64,000 bases of DNA from Candidatus Omnitrophota bacterium (lineage in GTDB: Bacteria > Omnitrophota > Gorgyraeia > Ghiorseimicrobiales > Ghiorseimicrobiaceae): the NCBI GenBank assembly GCA_030681595.1, contig JAUXSB010000008.1, positions 25,587-89,586 on the forward strand. Reading direction: 5' to 3'. The notes beneath the pieces were generated by a model, which saw only the letters and a program-made list of their open reading frames with translations, did not search any database and had not been told where the DNA came from. Numbering within the stretch: the first letter of the stretch is position 1; every line of letters begins with the position of its first letter. Of the stretch, positions 3,072-52,111 are shown piece by piece. The position numbers and the translations under genes were made by a program.

Positions 3072-4403
3072 ATGGAGCCAGAAATGATTGCTGTGGAAAA
3101 TGAGATATTGGATAAACTTGCCGGAAAAGTTACCCTGATGCAGAACATGGAAGCCAAAAAAGACGCTATGTTTAAGGTATTTTTAGACGTTTACAACAGC
3201 GAAAAAGGCAAAGCACTCTTAAAACAGGTAAAAGGCATAGAGATAGAAAGTTTCTTTAATAGTTTTCTTTCTTATGGTTTAATTGAAGACCTGTTAAATG
3301 ACCAGCAGGTGGAAGATATAATGATTAATTCTTTAGGCCCTATTTTCGTGCATAAGACCAATACGGGCCTGGTTAAGTTAGACAAAAGATTTACTTCTTC
3401 TGAAGAATTAAATTTATTCATCAAGAAGCTTATTATTTTTTCCGGCAAGACCCAAGTCAGGAAGATAAATAACATAGTATTGTATAATATTAAAGGCAGA
3501 GGCAATATAGTATTTTCTCCATTTGGCCCGCAGGTTACTATTACGCGCGCCAAAGAAAAGCCTTTGAGTATTATAGAATTAATCGCAAATCGCACATTAT
3601 CATTTGAGATCGCTGCACAGTTATGGCTTTACGTTGAAGGATTAGGAATTAAGCCGGCAAACCTTATTATCTCGGGAGGGCCGGGTACAGGGAAAACTAC
3701 ATTATTAAATGCCTTGCTCGCCTTTATGCCTAGCGAAGACAGGTTGGTTGTTATTGAGGATACATTAGAGTTAAATACAGAATTAGAAGAAAATTGTTCG
3801 CGTCTTGAGAGCGACGAGGAAGTAACCTTGGCAGATTTGGTAAAGAATAGCCTGAGGATGCGCCCGGATAGAGTTATCGTTGGCGAGGTAAGAGGCGCTG
3901 AGGCGGCCGACCTTATGACCGCGATGAATATCGGTAAATATTGCATGGGCACAATGCATGCTTCTACCGCGCGTGAAACAATAATGAGGCTGGAAAATGA
4001 GCCGATGAATGTTCCGGAAGTATTGGTAAATTTAATCGATGTTTTTGTGATTACGAGGCGTTTTAATATTGACGGCAAAATTGTAAGGGCCATAGGCGAA
4101 GTTGTTGAGACTGCCGGGATGGAAAAGAAGCTGGTTTTGCTTTCTCCGGTTTGGACATTTGATTATAGTAAAAGAAAATTTGTTGAAGCGGGGGTAAGCA
4201 GTGTTTATAGGGATAAGCTTGCGGAAGTAAGCGGTGTTAGCCCGAGAGATATTATTGAGGAAATAAAATTAAGGATCGCGGTTTTAAAGTTTCTGCATGA
4301 GAAAAACATAATGGATAATAAAGACGTAACTTTGTTCTGCCGTAAGTATCACACCAGCCGTAAAGAAGCCTTGGACGGGATAGGTTTTAAATATGGTGAA
4401 TAA
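3072..4403 (+). CDS. type II/IV secretion-system family ATPase (CpaF/TadA/VirB11/FlaI-like), orphan
   Basis: Walker A 'GGPGTGKTT', Asp box 'LVVIEDTLEL', Walker B 'RPDRVIVGEVRG' and His box 'GTMHAS' are all present. No partner membrane-platform genes (TadB/TadC) are adjacent. Confidence 0.8.
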   Translation: MEPEMIAVENEILDKLAGKVTLMQNMEAKKDAMFKVFLDVYNSEKGKALLKQVKGIEIESFFNSFLSYGLIEDLLNDQQVEDIMINSLGPIFVHKTNTGLVKLDKRFTSSEELNLFIKKLIIFSGKTQVRKINNIVLYNIKGRGNIVFSPFGPQVTITRAKEKPLSIIELIANRTLSFEIAAQLWLYVEGLGIKPANLIISGGPGTGKTTLLNALLAFMPSEDRLVVIEDTLELNTELEENCSRLESDEEVTLADLVKNSLRMRPDRVIVGEVRGAEAADLMTAMNIGKYCMGTMHASTARETIMRLENEPMNVPEVLVNLIDVFVITRRFNIDGKIVRAIGEVVETAGMEKKLVLLSPVWTFDYSKRKFVEAGVSSVYRDKLAEVSGVSPRDIIEEIKLRIAVLKFLHEKNIMDNKDVTLFCRKYHTSRKEALDGIGFKYGE

Positions 4404-13029: not shown

Positions 13030-13056
13030 AATAACCGCTTTTAAAACCATCATTAA

Positions 13057-13203
13057 CCCCGTTAGAGATAACAGCTATTACTAATAAGCAGGGCTTGGTA
13101 AATTACGGAAGCATAAATTTTATCAGTGAGATTTGTAAAGAACAGACGCCCCGAAGCTTCGGGGCTATCCCCGCCAGACAGAAGTCGGGCTGGTCTAACG
13201 GGG
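13057..13203. repeat. MITE-like element, family A (termini ccccgttagag... / ...tctaacgggg), copy 1
   Basis: Termini are inverted repeats. Internal hairpin cgccccgaagcttcggggc is present. Core ccccgccagacagaagtcgggctgg sits at 13168-13193. Related copies lie at 37134 and 51415. Confidence 0.55.
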
Positions 13204-13221
13204 TAAATCCTGCCTAAAATT

Positions 13222-16200
13222 ATGTTTTGGCATATTGAAGTAAAAGAAAAACGCGGCATCTTTGATGCAGTCGGCGAAGGTGTCAAAAAAGATATCTTTG
13301 ACTTAGGAATCAAATCCGTCCGTAAAGTTAGCTTTATCCAAGTTTATTCTATTGAAGGCGATTTAGCTCAAGCGGAAATCAGACGGATCTGCGAAGAATT
13401 ATTAACCGACAAAATTACCCAGGAATATTTTATTAACCGGCCAACCGGCAGGCCACAAGGCCGTGGTTTGGCCTCCGATGGCCAAAGCCACAAACCGGCC
13501 AACCGGTCAACCGAATTCGTGATTGAAGTCGCTTATAACCCCGGAGTAATGGATCCTGTGGAGGGTTCAGTAAAAAAGGCGATTTTGGATTTGGGAATAA
13601 ACAGAATAAGTAGCCTGCATACGGCGAAGAAGTACGTTATTTACGGCAGGCTTTCCAATGCTCAAATTAAAACTATCCGCGGTAAATTATTAGTAAATAA
13701 AGTAATACAACATGCCGTAACCGGCGCATCTAAAGGAGCTGAGGGAAGTGATTCGGGATATAAATTTCAGTTAGTGAGTGTTGATTTATTAAGCGCATCG
13801 GATAAAAAATTGCAAAAAATCAGCCGGGATGGGCAGTTATTTTTAAATCTTACCGAGATGCGCGCGATAAAAAAATATTTCAGCCGCCTTAAGAGGAACC
13901 CGACAGATGTGGAGCTGGAAACTTTAGCACAGACTTGGTCAGAACATTGCGTGCATAAGACGTTTAGGGGAAAGATAGATTATAAAAGAGTCACCAGTCA
14001 CCCCCGCCAGAACGAAGTCGGGCTGGAGTCATCAGTCACCAGAAGAAAAATTAATAACTTGCTTAAATCCACGATAATGAAGGCAACAAAAGAGCTGAAT
14101 AAGCCGTGGTGCGTTTCGGTGTTTAGTGACAATTCCGGCGTCATTGAATTTGACGAAAATTTTGATGTCTGTTTTAAAGTAGAGACGCATAACCATCCAT
14201 CAGCCCTTGAGCCGTTCGGCGGAGCAAATACCGGAATAGGCGGAGTAATCAGGGATCCGTTAGGCACAGGCTTGGGGGCAAAGCCAATTTTTAATACCGA
14301 TATATTTTGTTTTGGGCCGCCGGATTATCCTGTTTCAAAGCTGCCTAAGGGCAGCCTTCATCCAAAAAGGATTGCAAAGGGTGTAGTCAGCGGCGTGCGT
14401 GATTATGGCAACAAAATGGGCATTCCTACCATAAACGGCGCTGTTTTGTTTAGCGAGGGTTATATAGCAAATCCTTTAGTCTATTGCGGGACCGCCGGCT
14501 TAATCCCGAAGGACAAAGTTTTTAAAAAGGTAAATTCCGGAGATTTGATTGTAGTCATAGGCGGAAGGACCGGCAGGGACGGTATCCATGGCGCAACTTT
14601 TTCTTCCGGCGAGTTAACTCATGAATCCGAAAGCGTTTCCGGAACAGCTGTGCAAATAGGCAATCCGATTACCGAAAAAAAGATGTTGGATACCCTGCTT
14701 AAGGCGCGCGATAAAAATTTATATAATGCGATTACTGACTGCGGCGCGGGGGGGCTTTCCAGCGCGGTAGGAGAGATGGGTAAAGATTTGGGGGCAGTGG
14801 TTTATTTAGATAAAGTACCCCTAAAATATAGCGGCCTTGCTTATGATGAGATATGGATTTCAGAAGCACAGGAAAGGATGGTCCTGGCGGTAGATAAAAA
14901 AAACATAGGCGAATTACTTGATATTTTTGCTTCCGAAAATACAGAAGCAACTGTAATAGGCGAGTTTGGGCAGGATAAAATGCTCAAGCTTTTCTATCAG
15001 GATAATTTAGCCGGGGAATTGGAGATGGGTTTTCTGCATGAAGGGGTTCCTCTTTCTGTCAAGAAAGCCATAAGTGCAAAGCGTAATTTAAAAGAGCCGT
15101 ATTTAGCGGAGAAAAAAGATTTAACAGTAACTTTAAAAAAAGTGCTTTCTGATTACAACGTTGCCAGTAAAGAATGGGTGGTGCGCCAGTATGACCATGA
15201 AGTGCAGGGTTCGTCCGTTTTAAAACCGCTGGTAGGTATAAATAATGATGGCCCGTCGGATGCGGGGGTTGTGCGGCCCGTTTACTCGTCTAAAAAAGGC
15301 TTGGCTGTTTCCTGCGGCATAAACCCGCGCTATGGAGAGATATCTGCCTATTGGATGGCGGCATCCGCTATTGATGAGGCGCTGAGAAATATCGTCTCTG
15401 CCGGAGGCAATTTAGAGCGCACAGCGATTTTAGATAATTTCTGCTGGGGCAATCCGGATAAGCCGAACCGGTTAGGAACGCTCGTTGATGCGGCTTTTGC
15501 CTGCTATGATTTTGCCAAATATTTTGGAGTGCCGTTTATTTCCGGGAAAGACAGCTTATATAACGAATATAACGTAAAAGGAAAAAGTATCGCCATACCG
15601 GGGACGCTTTTGATCTCGGCAATTTCTGTAATGGAGGATGTAACAAAGGCCGTTTCAATGGATATCAAAAAGCCCGGAAATCTGATTTATATCGCAGGAG
15701 AGACCAAAAATGAATTAGGTGGTTCGGTTTATTATAAATTGTATGATTATTTGGGCGCTAATGTGCCGCAGGTGGATAGAAAAAAATCCAAGGGAATTAT
15801 GCAAGCATTGAGCCGTGTAATAGCCGAAGGTTTAGTAAGGTCAGCCCATGATTGTTCGGAGGGCGGATTAGCGGTTAGTTTAGCAGAGATGTGTTTTGCC
15901 GGAGGATTTGGCGCCGAAGTATTTTTGAGCGAAGTGCCGTATCAAGCCGCAAGCTTCAAGCTTCAAGCTTCAAGCTTCAAAGCCTGCAGCCTGCAGCCTG
16001 CAGCTGTTCGCAATGACATAATTTTGTTTTCGGAGTCAAACACGCGGTTTGTGGTAGAGATAGAAAAGAAAAATCAGAAGGTGTTTGAGAAGGCAATGCA
16101 GGATGTACCGTTGGGCCTTATCGGCTGCGTGTCTGGCGGCAAAGTGTTAGATATTTATGGGCTTGACCGCAAAATATGCGTCAGGGCGGATATCAACGAG

Positions 16201-16902: not shown

Positions 16903-17696
16903 CCAAGCCTAAAGCCTTAATTCTGCGTACCGCAGGGACAAATTGCGACAAGGAGACAAAGTTTGCCTTTGAGTTGGCGGGTGCCGCGGCAGAGCTTGTG
17001 CACATAAATGAAATTATAAAAGGCAGCGTTAAATTGTCTGATTATCAGATTTTGGCTCTGCCGGGAGGTTTTTCTTACGGCGATGATGTCGCCGCAGGAA
17101 AAATTTTGGCAAATGAGCTAAGGTTTAAAATGAGGGAAGATTTGAGCGGGTTCATCAAAGAGGGCAAACTTATTATCGGCATCTGTAACGGTTTTCAAAT
17201 TTTAGTCAAGGCAGGAATTTTACCGGGGAACGATGGTTTTGAGCAGGAGGCAAGCCTGATTATTAATGATTCAGGAAAGTTTGAAGACCGCTGGGTGTAT
17301 TTACGGGTTACGGGTTATGGGTTACGGGATACGAACTGCGTATGGACAAAGGACTTAGCGGAGATAGTATACCTTCCGGTGGCGCATGGGGAAGGAAAAT
17401 TTATTACAAAAGATAAGGCGGTTTTAGAAGGGTTGAAAAAGAATGGACAAATTGTTTTTCAGTATTGCGATAGGCAAGGGAGCTTAACCGGATACCCGGA
17501 CAATCCTAATGGTTCAGTGGATAATATTGCGGCAATTTCTGATAAGGCTGGCAGGATTTTTGGGCTTATGCCGCATCCCGAGCGCCACATTCTTGGGACA
17601 CAGCACCCGCGCTGGACGCGCCAAGGTTTAAAAAAATATGGCGATGGATTAGCAATTTTCCGTAACGGAGTAGAATATGCGAAGAAAAATCTCTAA
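16899..17696 (+). CDS. purQ: phosphoribosylformylglycinamidine synthase glutaminase subunit PurQ
   Basis: Class I glutamine amidotransferase with catalytic 'GICNGFQIL' and a His near 'PHPER'. Confidence 0.85.
   Translation: MTKPKALILRTAGTNCDKETKFAFELAGAAAELVHINEIIKGSVKLSDYQILALPGGFSYGDDVAAGKILANELRFKMREDLSGFIKEGKLIIGICNGFQILVKAGILPGNDGFEQEASLIINDSGKFEDRWVYLRVTGYGLRDTNCVWTKDLAEIVYLPVAHGEGKFITKDKAVLEGLKKNGQIVFQYCDRQGSLTGYPDNPNGSVDNIAAISDKAGRIFGLMPHPERHILGTQHPRWTRQGLKKYGDGLAIFRNGVEYAKKNL
17300..17330 (+). repeat. in-frame tandem heptamers in purQ (gggttacgggttatgggttacggg)
   Basis: Seen directly; encodes RVTGYGLRD. Confidence 0.6.
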
Positions 17697-19143: not shown

Positions 19144-20154
19144 ATGGCAAAAATAACTTATAAAAAATCCGGCGTAGATATTGGAGAAGCAGGTATTTTT
19201 AAGAATAAAATAAAGTCTTTGGTTCGGGAATCTTTCCGGCCTGAGGTCTTAAAGGATATCGGCGGATTCGGCAGTTTTTTTAGTTTCCCTAAAGATAAAT
19301 ACAAAGAACCGGTTTTGGTTTCATCTTCTGACGGTGTAGGCACAAAGCTAAAGATTGCTAGTTTAGTAAATAAACACGATACCATCGGTATTGATGCCGT
19401 AGCAATGAATGTAAATGATATTCTTTGTGTGGGCGCTGAGCCGTTGTTTTTTTTGGATTATATCTCCTATAGCAAGGTAGATTCCGGTGTGCTTATCGAT
19501 ATAGTAAAAGGCCTAAACCGCGGATGTATTGAGGCGGGTTGTTCTTTGGTGGGAGGCGAGACCGCTCAAATGCCCGGTATGTATAAGCAGGATGAATATG
19601 ATGTAGCCGGTTTTTGCGTCGGGGTAGTCGAGCGGAAGAATGTAATTGACGGCGCTAAAATTTCAGCCCGTGACGTTGTTATCGGTATAGAATCAAGCGG
19701 CCTGCATTCCAACGGCTATTCTTTAGTGCGTAAAGTTTTCTCTAAATCCGAGCTCATCCGTTATTCAGGGGAACTACTTATGCCTACCCGTATCTACGTT
19801 AAGCCTATTTTATCTTTGTTAAGGGTTAAGGGTTACGGGTTAAGGGTTAAGGGTATCGCGCATATCACCGGTGGAGCGTTCTACGATAAAATCGCGCGTA
19901 TCCTGCCGGATAATGTAAATGTCCGAATTAATAAGGATTCCTGGCCTGTGCCGAAAATCTTTAAACTTATCCAGAATAAAGGCGGGATCGCTGAGAAAGA
20001 AATGTACCATACCTTGAATATGGGCATTGGTTTGGTTTTGATAGTTGAGCCGAAAGCAAAAGAAGCCGTAATCTCGAAATTGGCTGAATTTAAGCTTAAG
20101 TCTTGGGCTATCGGTGAGGTCACCAAAGGTAAAAAAGAGGTTGAGATAGTTTAA
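19144..20154 (+). CDS. purM: phosphoribosylformylglycinamidine cyclo-ligase (AIR synthetase)
   Basis: PurM family; the N-terminus carries 'GGFGSFF' and 'DGVGTKL'. Confidence 0.9.
   Translation: MAKITYKKSGVDIGEAGIFKNKIKSLVRESFRPEVLKDIGGFGSFFSFPKDKYKEPVLVSSSDGVGTKLKIASLVNKHDTIGIDAVAMNVNDILCVGAEPLFFLDYISYSKVDSGVLIDIVKGLNRGCIEAGCSLVGGETAQMPGMYKQDEYDVAGFCVGVVERKNVIDGAKISARDVVIGIESSGLHSNGYSLVRKVFSKSELIRYSGELLMPTRIYVKPILSLLRVKGYGLRVKGIAHITGGAFYDKIARILPDNVNVRINKDSWPVPKIFKLIQNKGGIAEKEMYHTLNMGIGLVLIVEPKAKEAVISKLAEFKLKSWAIGEVTKGKKEVEIV
19818..19854 (+). repeat. in-frame tandem heptamers in purM (gttaagg gttaagg gttacgg gttaagg gttaagg)
   Basis: Seen directly; encodes LRVKGYGLRVKG. Confidence 0.6.
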
Positions 20155-21859: not shown

Positions 21860-23199
21860 GAATTTTAGTTATTGGTTCCGGCGGCAGGGAGCATGCGCTG
21901 GTTTGGAAAATAGCGCAGTCGAAGTTGGTAGATAAGATTTTTTGTGCGCCGGGAAATGCCGGGATTTCCGATTTGGCGGAGTGTGTTGATATAAGGCCTG
22001 AAGATATCCCGGCACTGATAGATTTTGTGCGCCGGGAAAAAATTGATTTAACCGTTGTCGGCCCGGAGGCACCGCTTTCTTTGGGCATAGTTGACGAGTT
22101 TAACAATTATAAGCTAAAAATATTCGGCCCAAATAAAAAGGCAGCGAAGCTCGAGGCAAGCAAGGTATTTGCCAAGCAAATGATGGCAAAATATAAAGTG
22201 CCGACCGCGGATTTTAAAATCTTTACCGATGCCGAAGAGGCAAAAAAATATATCGATAAAATTGGCCCGTCTTGCGTAGTTAAGGCAGACGGTTTGGCTA
22301 GCGGCAAGGGAGTAGTGGTAGCTAAAACTATTAATGAGGCAAAAGACGCAGTTACCTCAATGATAGAAGAGAAGATTTTTGGCGATGCCGGTAATAGAAT
22401 TATTATTGAGGAATGTTTAGAAGGCGCGGAGGCATCGATATTAGTTTTAACTGATTCGAAAGAAGTTATCCCTCTTGCGTCAGCCCAGGACCATAAAAGA
22501 ATTTTTGATAAGGATCAAGGCCCGAATACCGGCGGGATGGGGGCTTATTCGCCCGCGCCCGTAGTAACAAATGAATTATTCAACGAAATTTTAGATAAGG
22601 TTGTATATCGTATAATCGACGGTTTGATAAAAGAAGGGATAGATTATCGCGGCGTATTATACGCCGGGATTATACTGACTAAAGAAGGACCGAAAGTATT
22701 AGAGTTTAATGTGCGTTTTGGCGATCCCGAGACGGAAGCGATATTGCCGCGCCTATCGTCTGATTTAGTAGAGGCAATGTTGGCAACAGCCGATGGCAAA
22801 TTGACTAAGTTCAAAAAATTCGGCGGCCTTAATTGGGATAGCCGCGCCTGCGTTTGTGTTGTCTGCGCTTCCGGAGGATACCCGGGAAAGTATGAAAATG
22901 GAAAAGAAATTTTTGGTTTGGATGAAGCGGCAAAGATGAAAGATGTGGTAGTCTTTCATGCGGGAACTAAAAAGTCACCAGTCACCAGTCATACCCTTAC
23001 GGGCACAGGCCAGTCACCAGTAAAATATTTTACGAATGGCGGAAGGGTTTTGGGGGTGACGGGGTTAGGTAATATTATAAAAGAGGCAGTAGATAAAACC
23101 TATAAGGCTGTAGATAAAATTAGCTTTGAGGGGATGAATTACAGGAAAGATATAGGATATAAAGCGATAGCAAATATTAAAAATCAAATATCAAAATAA
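21856..23199 (+). CDS. purD: phosphoribosylamine--glycine ligase
   Basis: N-terminus 'MRILVIGSGGREHAL' and an ATP-grasp fold. Confidence 0.9.
   Translation: MRILVIGSGGREHALVWKIAQSKLVDKIFCAPGNAGISDLAECVDIRPEDIPALIDFVRREKIDLTVVGPEAPLSLGIVDEFNNYKLKIFGPNKKAAKLEASKVFAKQMMAKYKVPTADFKIFTDAEEAKKYIDKIGPSCVVKADGLASGKGVVVAKTINEAKDAVTSMIEEKIFGDAGNRIIIEECLEGAEASILVLTDSKEVIPLASAQDHKRIFDKDQGPNTGGMGAYSPAPVVTNELFNEILDKVVYRIIDGLIKEGIDYRGVLYAGIILTKEGPKVLEFNVRFGDPETEAILPRLSSDLVEAMLATADGKLTKFKKFGGLNWDSRACVCVVCASGGYPGKYENGKEIFGLDEAAKMKDVVVFHAGTKKSPVTSHTLTGTGQSPVKYFTNGGRVLGVTGLGNIIKEAVDKTYKAVDKISFEGMNYRKDIGYKAIANIKNQISK
22974..23021 (+). repeat. in-frame insertion in purD: (agtcacc)x2-3 flanking ccttacgggcacaggcc
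   Basis: It uses the same heptamer (agtcacc) as the purL insert at 13990. It encodes SPVTSHTLTGTGQSPV just before the conserved GGRVL. Confidence 0.5.
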
Positions 23200-28059: not shown

Positions 28060-29496
28060 ATGAAAAAAAATCCTTTTTTTGGCGTTATTTTAAAGCTTGC
28101 GGAATTAAACAGGCGCAAGGTTTATCTTGTCGGAGGGTACCTGCGTGATTTGTTTTTAAAGCGCAAAAGTTTTGATTTTGATTTTGCGGTGGATAAGGGA
28201 GCTATAAAATTTTCGCGCTCTATCGCCGAAAGGCTCAAAGGCGATTTTGTTGTTTTGGATAAAGAGCATGGTTCAGCGCGGGTTATTGTAAAAAAAGAAA
28301 ATACGAGTTACACTCTTGATTTTACAGATTTCCGCGGCAGGGATATAAACGAAGATCTATCGCTGCGTGATTTTACTATTAATGCGATGGCGCTAGATTT
28401 AAGTTGCCTGAAAAATGCCGCTAGCGAAGAGTTTATTGACCCTTATTCGGGAAAAAGCGATATAAAAAAAGGGCTGATTAAGGTAATTAACAACAGGGCG
28501 TTTTGCGATGACCCTTTGAGGATATTGCGTGTATTCAGCTTATCCGCAGTATTAAAATTTAAAATAGACGGCGAGACGCTTAAGCTCGCCCAGGAAAATA
28601 AAGATGGGATTTTTTCGGTTTCTTCTGAAAGGATAAGGGAGGAACTGTTTAAAATTTTAGCCGTGCCGAATGCGGCCGATTTTTTTAAAAAGATGGATAG
28701 TTTGTCTATACTGGAAAAAATTATCCCGGAAGTAAATATAATGCGTGATATTCAGCAGGGGCCGTATCACCATTTAGATGTTTTAGAGCATTCTTTTGAG
28801 GCGATGAGCCAGATTGAAAAATTATTTTCTGAATTAAAGCGCAATAAAAAAGTATCGGTTTATTTAGACGAAATTATCGCTGCGGAGCATTCACGCAGGC
28901 AAGTTTTAAAACTTGCCGTTTTTTTACACGATATAGGCAAACCCGATGCCATAACCTTTGAAGAGGGCAAAACAAAATTTCACGGACATGAACATATCGG
29001 CAGGCGCCTTGCATCCGCAGTTTGCGATAGGCTTAAGCTTTCCGGTAAAGAAAAAGATGCGATAAAGGCGATGATATTGTGGCATCTTCGCCCCGGTTAT
29101 TTAGCCGATAACCCCGATATAAGCGAGCGGGCGATATTCAGGTATTTTCGCGACACGGATAGCGAAGGTGTGAGTATCCTGCTTTTGTCTATGGCAGACC
29201 AACGATCAACCCGCGGCCCTTTAACTGTCAAGGCAAGCAGAATAAGGCATGAAAAGACCTGTCTCTGGTTGATAAAAGAGTATTTCCGGCGTAAAGAAGA
29301 GAAGAAATTGCCTAAGATAATTACCGGCGATGATTTGATGGAAAAGCTTAAGCTTGTTCCCGGCCCGGTGTTTGGAAAAATTTTAGATAAGGTGGAAGAA
29401 GAGCAGGCGGCAGGGGAAATAACTACTAAAAAGGAAGCTTTGGAATTAGCCCGCCAAATAGCAGCCGGGCATGTAAAGAAAATAGTAAAAACATAA
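28060..29496 (+). CDS. cca: CCA-adding enzyme / tRNA nucleotidyltransferase with HD domain
   Basis: PolyA-polymerase head 'LVGGYLRDL' with 'DFDFAV'. HD domain with 'FLHDIGKP'. Confidence 0.8.
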   Translation: MKKNPFFGVILKLAELNRRKVYLVGGYLRDLFLKRKSFDFDFAVDKGAIKFSRSIAERLKGDFVVLDKEHGSARVIVKKENTSYTLDFTDFRGRDINEDLSLRDFTINAMALDLSCLKNAASEEFIDPYSGKSDIKKGLIKVINNRAFCDDPLRILRVFSLSAVLKFKIDGETLKLAQENKDGIFSVSSERIREELFKILAVPNAADFFKKMDSLSILEKIIPEVNIMRDIQQGPYHHLDVLEHSFEAMSQIEKLFSELKRNKKVSVYLDEIIAAEHSRRQVLKLAVFLHDIGKPDAITFEEGKTKFHGHEHIGRRLASAVCDRLKLSGKEKDAIKAMILWHLRPGYLADNPDISERAIFRYFRDTDSEGVSILLLSMADQRSTRGPLTVKASRIRHEKTCLWLIKEYFRRKEEKKLPKIITGDDLMEKLKLVPGPVFGKILDKVEEEQAAGEITTKKEALELARQIAAGHVKKIVKT

Positions 29497-29507
29497 AGAA
29501 TATTTTA

Positions 29508-29696
29508 TGCTGTCTTCGCTCAAATTGCAATTTTATACGCTAGCTTCTCGGCATTTTAAGGCGCCTGCGGAACTCGTTCTTCGGCGGCTATGCCGCCAGG
29601 AATGAACTCAAACAGTCCTCGGCGTCCCGCTCTGCGAGCGTGAAACCTTAAAATGCTGCGACTCCTAGCTAAATTGCAAAATCGCTCAAACAGCAC
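29508..29696. repeat. ~190 bp imperfect palindromic (MITE-like) element
   Basis: Arms of about 55 bp (29508-29564 vs 29638-29696) include a perfect 11-bp ggcattttaagg/ccttaaaatgc pair. The GC-rich centre holds a ggcggctatgccgcc hairpin. Confidence 0.5.
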
Positions 29697-29733
29697 AAAA
29701 TATTGTTTATGTTTTCTTAAACTGGAATAAGAT

Positions 29734-36617: not shown

Positions 36618-37132
36618 GAAGAGTGATTGCGTTTCTGGCGGTTTTTCTGTTTTGTTTTTTTTCGCCTTTAGTATCAGCTGAAGATCACTTAGGTGAACAA
36701 ATAGAAGGTGAAGAGCCTTGCCCCTGTCCTGTTTCGTTAGGAAAGGCACCGAATTTTACCTTAAAAGACTTAAAGGGTAATGAAGTAAAACTTTCGGATT
36801 TTAACGGCAAGGGCATAATTTTATATTTTTGGGCTACAACATGCCCGATATGCGTAGAGCACACGGATGCGTTAAATAAAATGTATACCATACTTAAAGA
36901 AAAAAATATAGAATTTATCGCTATAGGCATGGGGGAGACCAAGAACCGCGTGAATCGTTTTATGAAAAGGAAACCCATAGATTTTCCTGTTCTCCTTGAT
37001 ACAAACGGCAAGGTAAGCCAATCGTATGTGATATTAGGCCCGCCTTCATTTGTAATCATTAATAAAACCGGGTATATCCGTTTCCAAAATTTTTTCTGGC
37101 CGCTTGACTACGAAAAATACATTTGTGAATAA
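36614..37132 (+). CDS. thioredoxin-like thiol:disulfide oxidoreductase (TlpA/ResA family)
   Basis: Signal peptide plus a 'WATTCPIC' CxxC motif. It overlaps the ccdA end. Confidence 0.75.
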   Translation: MRRVIAFLAVFLFCFFSPLVSAEDHLGEQIEGEEPCPCPVSLGKAPNFTLKDLKGNEVKLSDFNGKGIILYFWATTCPICVEHTDALNKMYTILKEKNIEFIAIGMGETKNRVNRFMKRKPIDFPVLLDTNGKVSQSYVILGPPSFVIINKTGYIRFQNFFWPLDYEKYICE

Positions 37133-37133
37133 A

Positions 37134-37253
37134 CCCCGTTAGAGATGATGTTTATCACTGTAAGGCGGAATTTGACAATTACTGAAATGCAGAGTTTATT
37201 AGTAGGCTTACAATTATTAGATGGTCACCTGCGGTGGCCTATCTCTAACAGGG
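37134..37253. repeat. MITE-like element, family A, copy 2 (ccccgttagagatg ... ctatctctaacaggg)
   Basis: 14-bp terminal inverted repeats with one mismatch. An internal near-palindrome ggtcacctgcggtggcc is present. Confidence 0.55.
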
Positions 37254-37263
37254 TAAAAAATCG

Positions 37264-37291
37264 TTGCATAATTTTTTAATTATGGTATAAT
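37264..37291 (+). promoter_or_regulatory. candidate sigma-70 promoter (TTGCAT -16- TGgTATAAT, extended -10) upstream of por operon
   Basis: Seen directly in the sequence, about 150 nt upstream of the porG GTG. Confidence 0.4.
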
Positions 37292-37442
37292 TTTTACTTC
37301 GCGTGCTTTAATTTTTTAAAATGAGGAAAAGATGAACCCCATTAGACCTCTGTGAGGTTAGCGGGATTTTGAAATATGGCGTTTGTGAGGTTGTAAATAG
37401 ACAATTTAGAAAAAGATACTTATTTTAGGGAGGTCTAACGGG

Positions 37443-37994
37443 GTGAAGGAAATCCGTATTCATGCCCGCGCAGGGCAGGGGGCGATAACAACAGCCGAGA
37501 TTCTTGGGCAGGCTTATTTTCAGGAAAATAAGTTTGCCTATGCCTTTCCGCATTTTGGCGCAGCACGTATGGGCGCTCCGATGAATGCCTTTGTGCGCGT
37601 GGATGAAAATCCGATAAGGCTAAGAAGCCAGGTGACCCAGCCTGATTATTTAATAGTTGCTGATCCTACCTTAATAATGCGCGGTTTTGATTGTTATTCT
37701 GGTTTTAAGGCGGATGGTATCGCGGTAATCAATACCAAAGAGGGTTTGGATATTCCGCAGCCTAAAGGAAAGCAAAAGATTTATCTAGTTCCAGCCAATG
37801 ATATTGCGATGAAGACAATCGGCAGGCCATTAGGCAACACGGTCTTGCTAGGTGCTTTTTCCGCGGCAACCAAAGAGATAAAATTGGAATCGCTTAATCA
37901 ATCAATAAAAGAAAGATTTTCCGGTAAAACCGCAGATTTAAATATTGAAGCGGCAAAACAGGGCTACGATTACATAAAGTCCGGTAAAACCTAA
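37443..37994 (+). CDS. porG: pyruvate/2-oxoacid:ferredoxin oxidoreductase gamma subunit
   Basis: GTG start. 'RAGQGAITTAEILGQA' is a POR gamma motif. Confidence 0.85.
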   Translation: MKEIRIHARAGQGAITTAEILGQAYFQENKFAYAFPHFGAARMGAPMNAFVRVDENPIRLRSQVTQPDYLIVADPTLIMRGFDCYSGFKADGIAVINTKEGLDIPQPKGKQKIYLVPANDIAMKTIGRPLGNTVLLGAFSAATKEIKLESLNQSIKERFSGKTADLNIEAAKQGYDYIKSGKT

Positions 37995-42600: not shown

Positions 42601-43473
42601 ATGAAACTAAAGCTTGGTATACCCAAAGGGAGCTTGCAGCAGGCGACCGTCAATGTTTTTAAAAAGGCCGGTTTTGAGATCAGGGTCAGCGAGCGGTCTT
42701 ATACGCCGTCAATAGACGATCTCGAAATCGAACCTTTCTTAATCAGGGCGCAAGAAATTTCCCGCTATGTAGAAGAAGGTGTGTTGGACTGCGGTATTAC
42801 AGGCAATGACTGGATTCTGGAAAATAAATCTAAGGTTTTGAGGATTCTCGACCTTGCTTACGCAAAACAGACGACAAATCCTGTGCGCTGGGTTTTAGCT
42901 GTGTCTGATGATTCTCGAATCAGAAAAGCGCAAGACCTTAACGGTAAGAGAGTGGCAACGGAATTGGTTGGTGTAACCAAGGATTATTTAAAGAAGCATA
43001 AAGTAAATGCCCATGTTGAATTTAGTTGGGGAGCAACTGAGGTAAAAGTCAAGACGGGTTTAGTCGATGCAATTGTGGAATTAACCGAAACAGGTTCGAG
43101 TCTCCGGGCAAATAACCTCAGGATTATTGATACCGTATGCGTTTCTACTACACAATTTATTGCCAATAAGAACGCCTATCAAAATAAATGGAAGAAGGAA
43201 AAAATGTCGCAGCTGGCATTGTTGTTGTCAGGGGCGATTGCGGCAGAAGGCAAGGTCGGCATTAAGATGAATGTCGGCAAGAAAAACATTAAAAGAATTA
43301 TTTCGCTTCTCCCTGCTTTAAAGAATCCTACGGTTTCTTCTTTAAGCCGCGGGGAATGGTATGCGGTTGAAACAGTAGTGGAGGAGAAGATAGTGCGTTC
43401 TCTTGTCCCGCGCCTGAAAAATGCCGGTGCCGAAGATATTATTGAATATCCGTTAAATAAAGTGATATACTAA
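42601..43473 (+). CDS. hisG: ATP phosphoribosyltransferase (long form with C-terminal regulatory domain)
   Basis: HisG family, about 290 aa. Confidence 0.9.
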
Positions 43474-43480
43474 GTAATTA

Positions 43481-43522
43481 GAAACCAGTAATACCCTGTT
43501 GGGTACAGGCCAGAAACCAGAG
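43481..43522. repeat. short repeat family B, copy 1 (gaaaccagtaataccctgttgggtacaggccagaaaccagag)
   Basis: An inverted copy with about 85% identity lies at 49565-49608. Confidence 0.5.
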
Positions 43523-49564: not shown

Positions 49565-49608
49565 AATAAAATTCTTCTGGCCTGTGCCCGGCAGGGTATT
49601 ACTGTAAT
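49565..49608. repeat. short repeat family B, copy 2 (inverted orientation)
   Basis: The reverse complement gaaaccagattacagtaataccctgccgggcacaggccagaa matches 43481-43522. Confidence 0.5.
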
Positions 49609-49646
49609 CTGGTTTCTCCCGAACGACTGAAAGGAGTAAGGGTAAG

Positions 49647-51353: not shown

Positions 51354-51414
51354 CGGTAATACCGCGCCTTTGCCAAGGCAGAGAAGAAAAGTAGGTTGAT
51401 ATATGCGGGGCTTA

Positions 51415-51455
51415 CCCCGTTAGAGATAGCCCCGAAACCTCGGGGCGTCTATAGC
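51415..51455. repeat. MITE-like element, family A, truncated copy 3 (ccccgttagagatagccccgaaacctcggggcgtctata)
   Basis: It shares the left terminus and the ccccgaaRcYtcgggg hairpin with copy 1. Confidence 0.45.
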
Positions 51456-51478
51456 AGCAATGTCTTAAATAATAGTTT

Positions 51479-52111
51479 ATGTTTCTTAAGGGTAGTTCAG
51501 GTAAAATAAAGACAAGAGAAGTTATCTCGAGCGCGGTGAAGCTGATTGTGGGTTTGGGCAACCCAGGCGGCAAATATAAAAATAGCCGGCATAATTTTGG
51601 GTTTAAGGTAGTTGAGGCTTTAGCCGAAGAATTAAAATGTTCTTTTAAAAAAAGACTGTCTTTAGAGAGTTTTATGGCCGAGGCTGATATCGGCGGCATA
51701 AGCGTGTTACTGGCGCTGCCATTTACATTTATGAATTTATCGGGCAGGGCGGTAGAGGCGATAATAACAAGGCGAAAAATAGCTATTTTTGATTTGATTG
51801 TTGTTTGTGATGATGTTAATCTTGAATTTAGTGTAATCAGGTTAAGGCCTAAGGGTTCAAGCGGCGGCCATAACGGCCTTGCAAATATAATTGATAGGCT
51901 GGGGTCTTCTGAATTTGCGCGTTTGCGTATGGGCATAAGAGGTGGTTCTTTAGGGGAGCTTGATTTAAGCGGTTATGTTTTATCTGATTTTAACAAAAAG
52001 GAAAAAATACTGCTTGAAGACATAATAGGTGAAGCAGTAGGTTGTTTAAAAATGTGGGTTGAGGAAGGCATAACAGGGGCAATGAACAAATTTAGCCAAA
52101 GGAGTGACTAG
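51479..52111 (+). CDS. pth: peptidyl-tRNA hydrolase
   Basis: 'LIVGLGNPG' and 'RHNFGF'. The true start may be the GTG at 51536 (VKLIVGLGNPG). Confidence 0.85.
   Translation: MFLKGSSGKIKTREVISSAVKLIVGLGNPGGKYKNSRHNFGFKVVEALAEELKCSFKKRLSLESFMAEADIGGISVLLALPFTFMNLSGRAVEAIITRRKIAIFDLIVVCDDVNLEFSVIRLRPKGSSGGHNGLANIIDRLGSSEFARLRMGIRGGSLGELDLSGYVLSDFNKKEKILLEDIIGEAVGCLKMWVEEGITGAMNKFSQRSD

Follow-up and report, generated by a model that had tools for sequence, protein, structure and literature searches.

A family of short inverted-repeat elements in a 64-kb stretch of Omnitrophota DNA probably consists of non-autonomous DNA transposons (MITEs) that arose by deletion from a ~277-bp element carrying a GIY-YIG nuclease gene, and that rebuild codons where they insert at TNAA targets. 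MITEs are a known kind of element; neither this family nor its codon-rebuilding sites nor its nuclease-only parent turned up in Rfam, in NCBIfam or in the literature that could be searched. Literature queries by terminal sequence, by MITE with Omnitrophica, and by GIY-YIG with inverted repeats, transposon, COG2827 or UPF0213 returned nothing relevant; their coverage was incomplete and an earlier description is possible.

Four full copies lie in the window

The window, by which we mean the whole 64-kb stretch of DNA analysed, holds four full copies of the repeat, all non-coding and 107-147 nt long, each with 13-nt inverted repeats as its ends (CCCCGTTAGAGAY) and a 4-bp target duplication of the form TNAA. 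The copies and associated features are as follows.

13057..13203, forward strand: copy 1, 147 nt, in the spacer between a Band7/SPFH gene and purS-purL (Pfam)
13148..13165, forward strand: subterminal hairpin of copy 1 (GCCCCGAAGCTTCGGGGC), on the side equivalent to the parent gene 3′ end
13170..13193, forward strand: secondary insert within copy 1, 24 nt (CCCGCCAGACAGAAGTCGGGCTGG), missing in copies 2 and 3
37134..37253, forward strand: copy 2, 120 nt, on the TAA stop codon of an AhpC/TSA gene
37264..37291, forward strand: por promoter (TTGCAT, 16 nt, TGgTATAAT), between copies 2 and 2b and outside both
37337..37443, no strand assigned: copy 2b, 107 nt, within the porG start codon
51415..51536, reverse strand: copy 3, 122 nt, in the L25/pth spacer

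The motif CCCCGTTAGAG, with at most one mismatch allowed, was observed six times in the window compared with 0.51 expected, and none of 100 shuffles reached six. The first-pass annotation of this DNA was therefore right to recognize a real repeat family, which is also multi-copy beyond the window. It had already placed the full copies at 13057-13203 and 37134-37253, with their inverted termini, and had named purL, por and pth as neighbors, which Pfam confirms in the gene orders Band7 - copy 1 - PurS-PurL, AhpC/TSA - copy 2 - promoter - copy 2b - POR gamma subunit, and L25 - copy 3 - Pth. Its count of three copies, two full and one fragment, has to be raised to four full copies. The solo terminus reported ~20 nt upstream of purL belongs to copy 1 as its right end, and the one reported on the porG GTG closes another full copy on the right, the diverged copy 2b, which has TGAA on both sides and brings the number to four. 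The copy described as truncated at 51455 has its full length: a family profile of 65 members covers copy 3 across 51414-51528 (E 1.3e-6), and its degenerate right end (ATCTCGAGCGCGG) finishes at 51536, which is the first base of the pth GTG.

Copy 1 is flanked by TTAA (13053-13056) and TAAA (13204-13207), and its left end runs on into the 5′ leader of the parent element described below (CCCCGTTAGAGATAACAGCTAT), with 21 of 22 bases the same as in the 5′ end of the full-length consensus. The target duplication of copy 2 is TAAA (37130-37133 and 37254-37257) and its hairpin lies at 37223-37239. Copy 2b has diverged ends, CCCCATTAGAC on the left and GTCTAACGGGG on the right, and a TGAA duplication (37333-37336 and 37444-37447). 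Matching has been lost from the flanks of copy 3 (CTTA and TGAA), which is oriented opposite to copies 1 and 2 and has its hairpin (51429-51446) adjoining the left end. The GC hairpin that had been reported as shared by copies 1 and 3 is indeed common to both, although it stands in inverted orientation, which had been missed. No GIY-YIG gene was found within the 64-kb window, and neither such a gene nor a further copy was found in the 8 kb of the same organism beyond it.

The window also contains a second family of small GC-rich repeats (14002-14026, 13169-13193, 22977-23013, 43473-43515 and 49575-49617). The 25-mer at 13169-13193, which overlaps the insert in copy 1, is identical at 23 of 25 positions to purL 14002-14026, and this purL stretch falls within what seems to be an additional in-frame segment, VTSHPRQNEVGLESSVT. 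The three remaining loci have a common inverted-repeat motif, ACCAGT..ACCC...GGG.ACAGGCCAG, and it is only our impression that this motif is linked to the 25-mer of copy 1 and purL. Heptamer runs of TTACGGG / GGGTTA(A/C) occur inside ORFs at 17301-17328 and 19812-19853.

Close relatives carry empty insertion sites

Relative L119 is syntenic with the window over 20 kb (PorG 96% identical, ~85-89% DNA identity) and, like relatives L123 and L120, is without copies 2 and 2b. At the site of copy 2, L119 reads GTGAA-TAAA-AATAC where the window reads TAAA(copy 2)TAAA; at the site of copy 2b, L119, L123 and L120 read GAGGAAAAGA-TGAA-AGAAATCCG where the window reads TGAA(copy 2b)TGAA. Because relatives without the copies show single TAAA and TGAA sites, we conclude that copies 2 and 2b are insertions with a textbook 4-bp target duplication. 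Copy 3 is older than these two and is also found in relative L222, of the L119 lineage, with compensatory changes in the hairpin. The opposite situation occurs in L026, whose glmU-like/prs spacer contains a copy that is missing from the window.

In a more distant relative (Pth 64% identical), the L25-pth spacer contains a separate, decayed copy (L223:1342-1462), which lies in the other orientation and off the start codon; the pth start of this relative is ATG (TTTTAATGAAG). Separately, a ~190-nt segment of the window (29506-29697) with a 26-nt inverted repeat (29488-29513 / 29690-29715) lies between two co-directional genes and is missing at the syntenic site in L119; it looks like a different MITE-like element.

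Start codons are rebuilt at porG and pth and a stop codon is kept at the AhpC/TSA gene

Copy 2b split the ancestral porG start, turning ATGAA into TGAA(element)TGAA, and the present porG GTG (37443-37445) is composed of the last G of copy 2b and the duplicated TG. Owing to this insertion the ancestral porG GAGGA is now 111 nt upstream, and a GGGAGG within copy 2b (37428-37433) stands 8 nt before the rebuilt GTG. The old porG ATG (37332-37334; ancestrally ATG-AAA-GAA) now opens a 7-codon upstream ORF, MNPIRPL followed by a stop. The pth GTG (51536-51538) has the same construction, the last G of copy 3 plus TG. The Pfam POR domain begins at residue 10 of PorG and the Pth domain at residue 3, counted from GTG 51536; on the basis of these domain boundaries and of homologue N termini, porG and pth would now be translated from the rebuilt GTG codons. 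At the AhpC/TSA gene, where copy 2 went into the TAA, the left half of the duplication keeps the stop. The NCBI protein P0241 (210 aa, Pth) begins at an ATG within copy 3 (window 51479-51535) and is 19 residues too long compared with the GTG 51536 start favored by the Pfam domain and by shorter homologues. A relative carries the same 210-aa Pth call.

It had been suggested that the elements supply promoter or ribosome-binding context to the genes behind them. A promoter role is rejected: the por promoter lies between copies 2 and 2b and is ancestral, since it is kept in L119, which has neither element, and promoter scans inside the elements gave results at chance level. The suggestion of ribosome-binding context holds in a stronger form than was proposed at the porG and pth start codons, but nothing alike was found at purL, where copy 1 is merely in the spacer and has rebuilt neither a start codon nor a ribosome-binding site.

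The family spans phyla and sits on gene boundaries

Among species-representative genomes, scanned for both ends 98-128 nt apart, more than 118 loci fit the two-terminus pattern compared with ~4 estimated chance matches. The condition under which the first-pass annotation would have given up the family, a lack of more copies in the genome, is thus clearly contradicted. With inverted ends, a 4-bp duplication, empty sites in relatives and hundreds more copies, its description as a family of miniature inverted-repeat elements is correct. The hosts are Omnitrophota, Planctomycetota, many Patescibacteria lineages, Elusimicrobiota, Ratteibacteria, Nitrospinota, Nitrospirota, Desulfobacterota ("Deltaproteobacteria") and Bdellovibrionales, which amounts to at least eight phylum-level groups, with copies on several contigs per MAG. 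Copies occur in both orientations beside unrelated genes across these phyla, and a ~146-nt subfamily is conserved in sequence from phylum to phylum. No family matches were found on viral contigs or plasmids.

The 4-nt flanks were identical in 74 of 128 paired copies compared with 15.3 expected (maximum 28 in 1000 shuffles). Duplicated flanks are TAAA/TTTA, TGAA/TTCA or TCAA/TTGA, and the preferred site is R-TNAA-Y, in which the T at -4 and the A at +4 are free of constraint from the search pattern. Positions 1-10 of the 13-nt repeat are invariant in the sample, an invariance that the search pattern partly imposes, and positions 11-13 differ from copy to copy while covarying between the two ends of one copy (self 0.90-0.93, cross 0.49-0.87). 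A hairpin begins at element nt 15 in 54 of 66 window-type copies, with 53 distinct stem sequences, a mean stem of 7.6 bp compared with 5.5 in shuffles, a GT following it, and covariation across the family. Consensus folding of the family alignment recovered the terminal stem only, because loop lengths vary, and the hairpin was therefore measured directly.

A covarying hairpin, folding that is better than in shuffles (z = -4.6, -3.9 and -3.9) and the intergenic placement of all copies upstream of genes are what a structured cis-regulatory RNA, such as a leader, riboswitch or terminator of purL, por and pth, might show. However, the favorable folding is mostly that of the terminal repeat, close relatives have the same genes without the elements, target duplications are present, copies lie in both orientations beside unrelated genes in many phyla, and some are in frame within prepilin leaders. 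Rfam returned only tRNAs for the window at the gathering threshold and nothing credible for the elements even at permissive E-values. We consider a regulatory RNA extremely improbable. An intrinsic terminator was also rejected, as no T-run follows the hairpin, and so were attC sites, in which the GTT...AAC order is reversed relative to that seen here.

By crude ORF calls, 47 copies could be classified by gene context: 31 separate co-directional genes, 16 separate divergent genes, and no copy has convergent neighbors. In 24 copies, the terminal G and the TG after it open the frame of an ORF of 100 codons or more; most of these copies have ATGAA or GTGAA on the opposite flank, several are at ATGA stop/start overlaps, and they are insertions into start codons. 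At the stop side, the duplicated TAA or TGA terminates the incoming gene in 11 copies, and a TAG within the repeat (CCC CGT TAG) does so in 12 more. Seventeen copy ends adjoin the prepilin G-FT(L/I)E N-terminus, the target being the TTTA inside GGN TTT ACN, and 7 of these 17 are open, in-frame leader insertions of ~43-50 codons in a leader that gets cleaved off.

Prepilin-leader copies at the G-FT cleavage motif occur at L060:2738-2885 and 3369-3513 and in L061, L084, L051, L067 and L090. They read ...GFTPLE...SLT-GFTLIELL, so that the GFT motif is duplicated, and many of the loci are type IV pilus or T2SS clusters with PilB, PilC, secretin and prepilin peptidase.

A ~277-nt element with the same ends encodes a GIY-YIG nuclease

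Among ORFs beside unpaired ends we noticed a 280-nt element (L040:2564-2843) with the same ends as the short copies and a complete GIY-YIG ORF, and a second full-length element of this kind lies at L054:3785-4060. The layout is a repeat, ~8 nt, an ATG and 86 codons, with no other gene. The right inverted repeat doubles as the last six codons (TTC CTA TCT CTA ACG GGG, F L S L T G), and the ORF takes its stop from the flanking target TGA or TAA. A relative of the nuclease is encoded by 433 of 600 sampled stretches of a metagenome collection, and 78 of the 80 metagenome loci kept have both ends, 270-286 nt apart. Across 1.18 Mb of loci, adjacent left-right end pairs are spaced at 150 nt or less (181 pairs) or at 250-306 nt (90 pairs), with one pair of 3517 nt outside both classes; these loci were picked by the protein or by patterns fixing ends and size range, so that both the two size classes and the constancy of the ends are in part a product of this selection.

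The window copies keep remnants of both ends of the gene of the full-length element and are probably deletion derivatives of it. The conserved AGG...hairpin end of the short copies is equivalent to the ORF 3′ end, many short copies retain the ..KRFLSLTG codons, and one short copy (L008) retains 23 N-terminal codons of the nuclease gene; beyond the repeat, the window copies match the parent profile weakly and over a short stretch (E 0.21). Short and full-length copies lie within a few kb of each other at 15 loci, a co-occurrence that is only suggestive of mobilization in trans. The first-pass annotation had missed the relation of the short copies to a protein-coding parent.

Extragenic palindromic doublets of the REP/REPIN kind, spread by a RAYT (HUH Y1) transposase, resemble the short copies in size (~100-150 nt), in their hairpin-forming inverted ends, in lying outside genes and in copy number. 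REPINs are not known to leave a target duplication, whereas this family does; the protein between the ends is a GIY-YIG rather than an HUH enzyme, and no RAYT gene was seen. The empty sites and duplications contradict the REPIN reading and the RNA reading alike, and we give a REPIN origin next to no weight.

Full-length copies fall into two types. The C-type copies have direct-repeat flanks in 8 of 61 cases and almost always TGAA or TAAA as the right flank, which gives the ORF its stop. They would be old copies in which the unconstrained left flank has drifted, and some may reflect replacement-type insertion. A longer inverted repeat in full-length copies was considered and rejected, with flank positions 5-12 pairing at chance (2.0 of 8). 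The T-type copies (21 distinct) have ends TCCC...GGGA and lie on start codons, with an ATG in the left flank in 17 of 21 and an ATG rebuilt at the right junction in all 21. In 11 T-type copies of 274-277 nt, the host ATG is in frame, via the left repeat, with the nuclease ORF and on to the flanking TGA, which overlaps the rebuilt ATG. In such a layout the element would be translated from host signals and ribosomes would then continue into the host gene. For the short start-codon copies, translational coupling was rejected, as 0 of 22 retain an ORF that runs from the host ATG as far as the TGA on the right.

N-terminally extended gene calls of the nuclease include a translation of the left repeat, in the form MNPVRE.. 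or ..FTPLE... Many nuclease homologues are on very short contigs, and the elements probably break assemblies. One host gene family (...FDAIRQLM.PPEPEPPKKRIGF...) has full-length elements, many C-type copies among them, at varied points of its 3′ tail at ~19 metagenome loci (L155-L206), which suggests a hot spot or a linked mobile unit. Full-length elements on a TspO/MBR start codon were found in two genomes (L125-L141) with different neighbor genes.

The nuclease is old and under selection

The 86-aa protein belongs to the Pfam GIY-YIG family (PF01541, E 4e-16); no NCBIfam model covers it. A protein search returned 4528 clusters, the best 120 of which are 72-94% identical and mostly exactly 86 aa, with 78 of these 120 ending exactly in ...SLTG. 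An exhaustive profile search found 3614 clusters (50% identity) at E <=1e-10, among which a sister group ends in ..YLTG, suggesting that it has a related end sequence. The nearest PDB entries by sequence are the UPF0213 structures 1zg2 (E 1.3e-9) and 1ywl, and the AlphaFold model (pLDDT 92.4) is closest to 1zg2, then to Slx1 (TM 0.59-0.65) and then to the I-TevI catalytic domain. Residues Y5, Y16, G18, R26, H30 and E62 are invariant and correspond to the canonical Tyr, Tyr-x-Gly, Arg, His and Glu. The ORF is intact in 69 of 77 cases. Because synonymous sites are saturated (pS 0.83) with pN at 0.20 and dN/dS at ~0.11, we conclude that the nuclease is old and under selection; the terminal DNA has meanwhile remained nearly invariant.

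How the elements may move

Insertion duplicates a 4-bp TNAA within the preferred R-TNAA-Y, and the targets TAA-A, TGA-A and A-TGA-A are stop codons, start codons or ATGA overlaps. With an element end of G (A in one subfamily), insertion into a stop keeps the stop and insertion into a start rebuilds a GTG or ATG; the accumulation of surviving copies on gene boundaries could thus be due to this regeneration of codons. The GIY-YIG protein, acting in trans, may move the short copies, cutting at the base of a structure formed by the paired ends, for which an Slx1-like fold would be suited, while host repair would fill the 4-nt stagger and join the ends. Whether the nuclease itself drives movement seems to us about evenly balanced. 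We propose more tentatively, at somewhat less than an even chance, that the ~277-bp element moves autonomously and represents a new transposon class, in which the nuclease, its only protein, cuts the ends and TNAA and host repair joins them. Such an element would insert into start codons, be translated from the start signal of the host and return translation to the host gene by way of an overlapping stop/start.

GIY-YIG enzymes cleave DNA by hydrolysis and to our knowledge have no strand-transfer activity, and inverted ends with a 4-bp duplication are the classic signature of a DDE transposase. The main rival reading is therefore that a DDE enzyme encoded elsewhere, for example an IS1380/piggyBac-like one, might move both the short and the 277-bp elements, with the GIY-YIG protein as a passenger or a helper such as a break-making homing nuclease. 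IS1380 has ends beginning CC and 4-5 bp repeats, and piggyBac targets TTAA and has CCC... ends, more precisely CCCTAGAAAGATA; the ends of the present family likewise begin CC(C), with a 4-bp duplication at a T..A site. IS1380 is treated in the literature as a prokaryotic relative of piggyBac. In the 1.18 Mb of loci, however, no DDE gene was found between the family ends, the largest element is ~280 bp, and no ORF-carrying end pair above 306 nt was seen (the 3517-nt pair being the one pair of greater length). Recurrent ORF clusters in the loci are pilus and secretion genes and kinases, with no transposase; the large ORFs beside unpaired ends are all housekeeping genes; a generic repeat-plus-duplication scan for insertion sequences found none; and the family is without plasmid or viral-contig matches. 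In addition, the C-terminus of the ORF merges with the repeat and the ends enclose 78 of 80 ORFs, which argues for co-evolution rather than a passenger. We regard a DDE transposase acting from elsewhere as unlikely.

Several known systems share features with the elements that we read as nuclease-derived MITEs. Correia/NEMIS elements of Neisseria are similarly 100-150 bp, with terminal inverted repeats, short duplications and many intergenic copies near gene starts, where they can alter expression. Correia elements, known from a single genus, differ in their 26-bp repeats and TA duplication, and we know of no cognate transposase for them, whereas the window family has 13-nt repeats, TNAA targets, identifiable full-length relatives and a range of at least eight phylum-level groups. 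Rickettsia palindromic elements (RPEs) are also small and palindromic and are tolerated as in-frame insertions in coding regions, as in the 7 prepilin leaders here. The window family differs in lying mostly on gene boundaries and not inside genes, and we know of no RPE that rebuilds start or stop codons or derives from a nuclease gene.

Free-standing homing endonucleases such as phage T4 Seg, and I-TevI, likewise involve a small selfish GIY-YIG gene, and the parent-element nuclease has the fold of the I-TevI catalytic domain. Homing copies a gene into a homologous allele via flanking homology and is not known to involve inverted ends, target duplication or deletion derivatives at unrelated loci. 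In contrast to homing endonucleases, the parent-element protein is an 86-aa catalytic domain alone, without a separate DNA-binding domain, and it is closer to UPF0213 and Slx1 than to I-TevI. UPF0213/YhbQ and Slx1 are its best matches by sequence and structure, the difference being that in the parent-element clade the C-terminus is encoded by the repeat; we know of no report of UPF0213 genes bounded by inverted repeats.

Implications

Start codons beside these elements are easily miscalled, which matters for the annotation of uncultivated lineages. The proposal that target and element ends together regenerate codons offers a testable reason why compact genomes tolerate such elements, even in cleaved prepilin leaders. 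An 86-aa nuclease and a 10-nt invariant end make up a small system open to in vitro study. If our proposal is true, the ~277-bp element would rank as the smallest protein-coding transposon known and as the origin of a MITE superfamily that crosses phyla, and GIY-YIG would join the few nuclease and other enzyme classes by which inverted-repeat transposons are driven.
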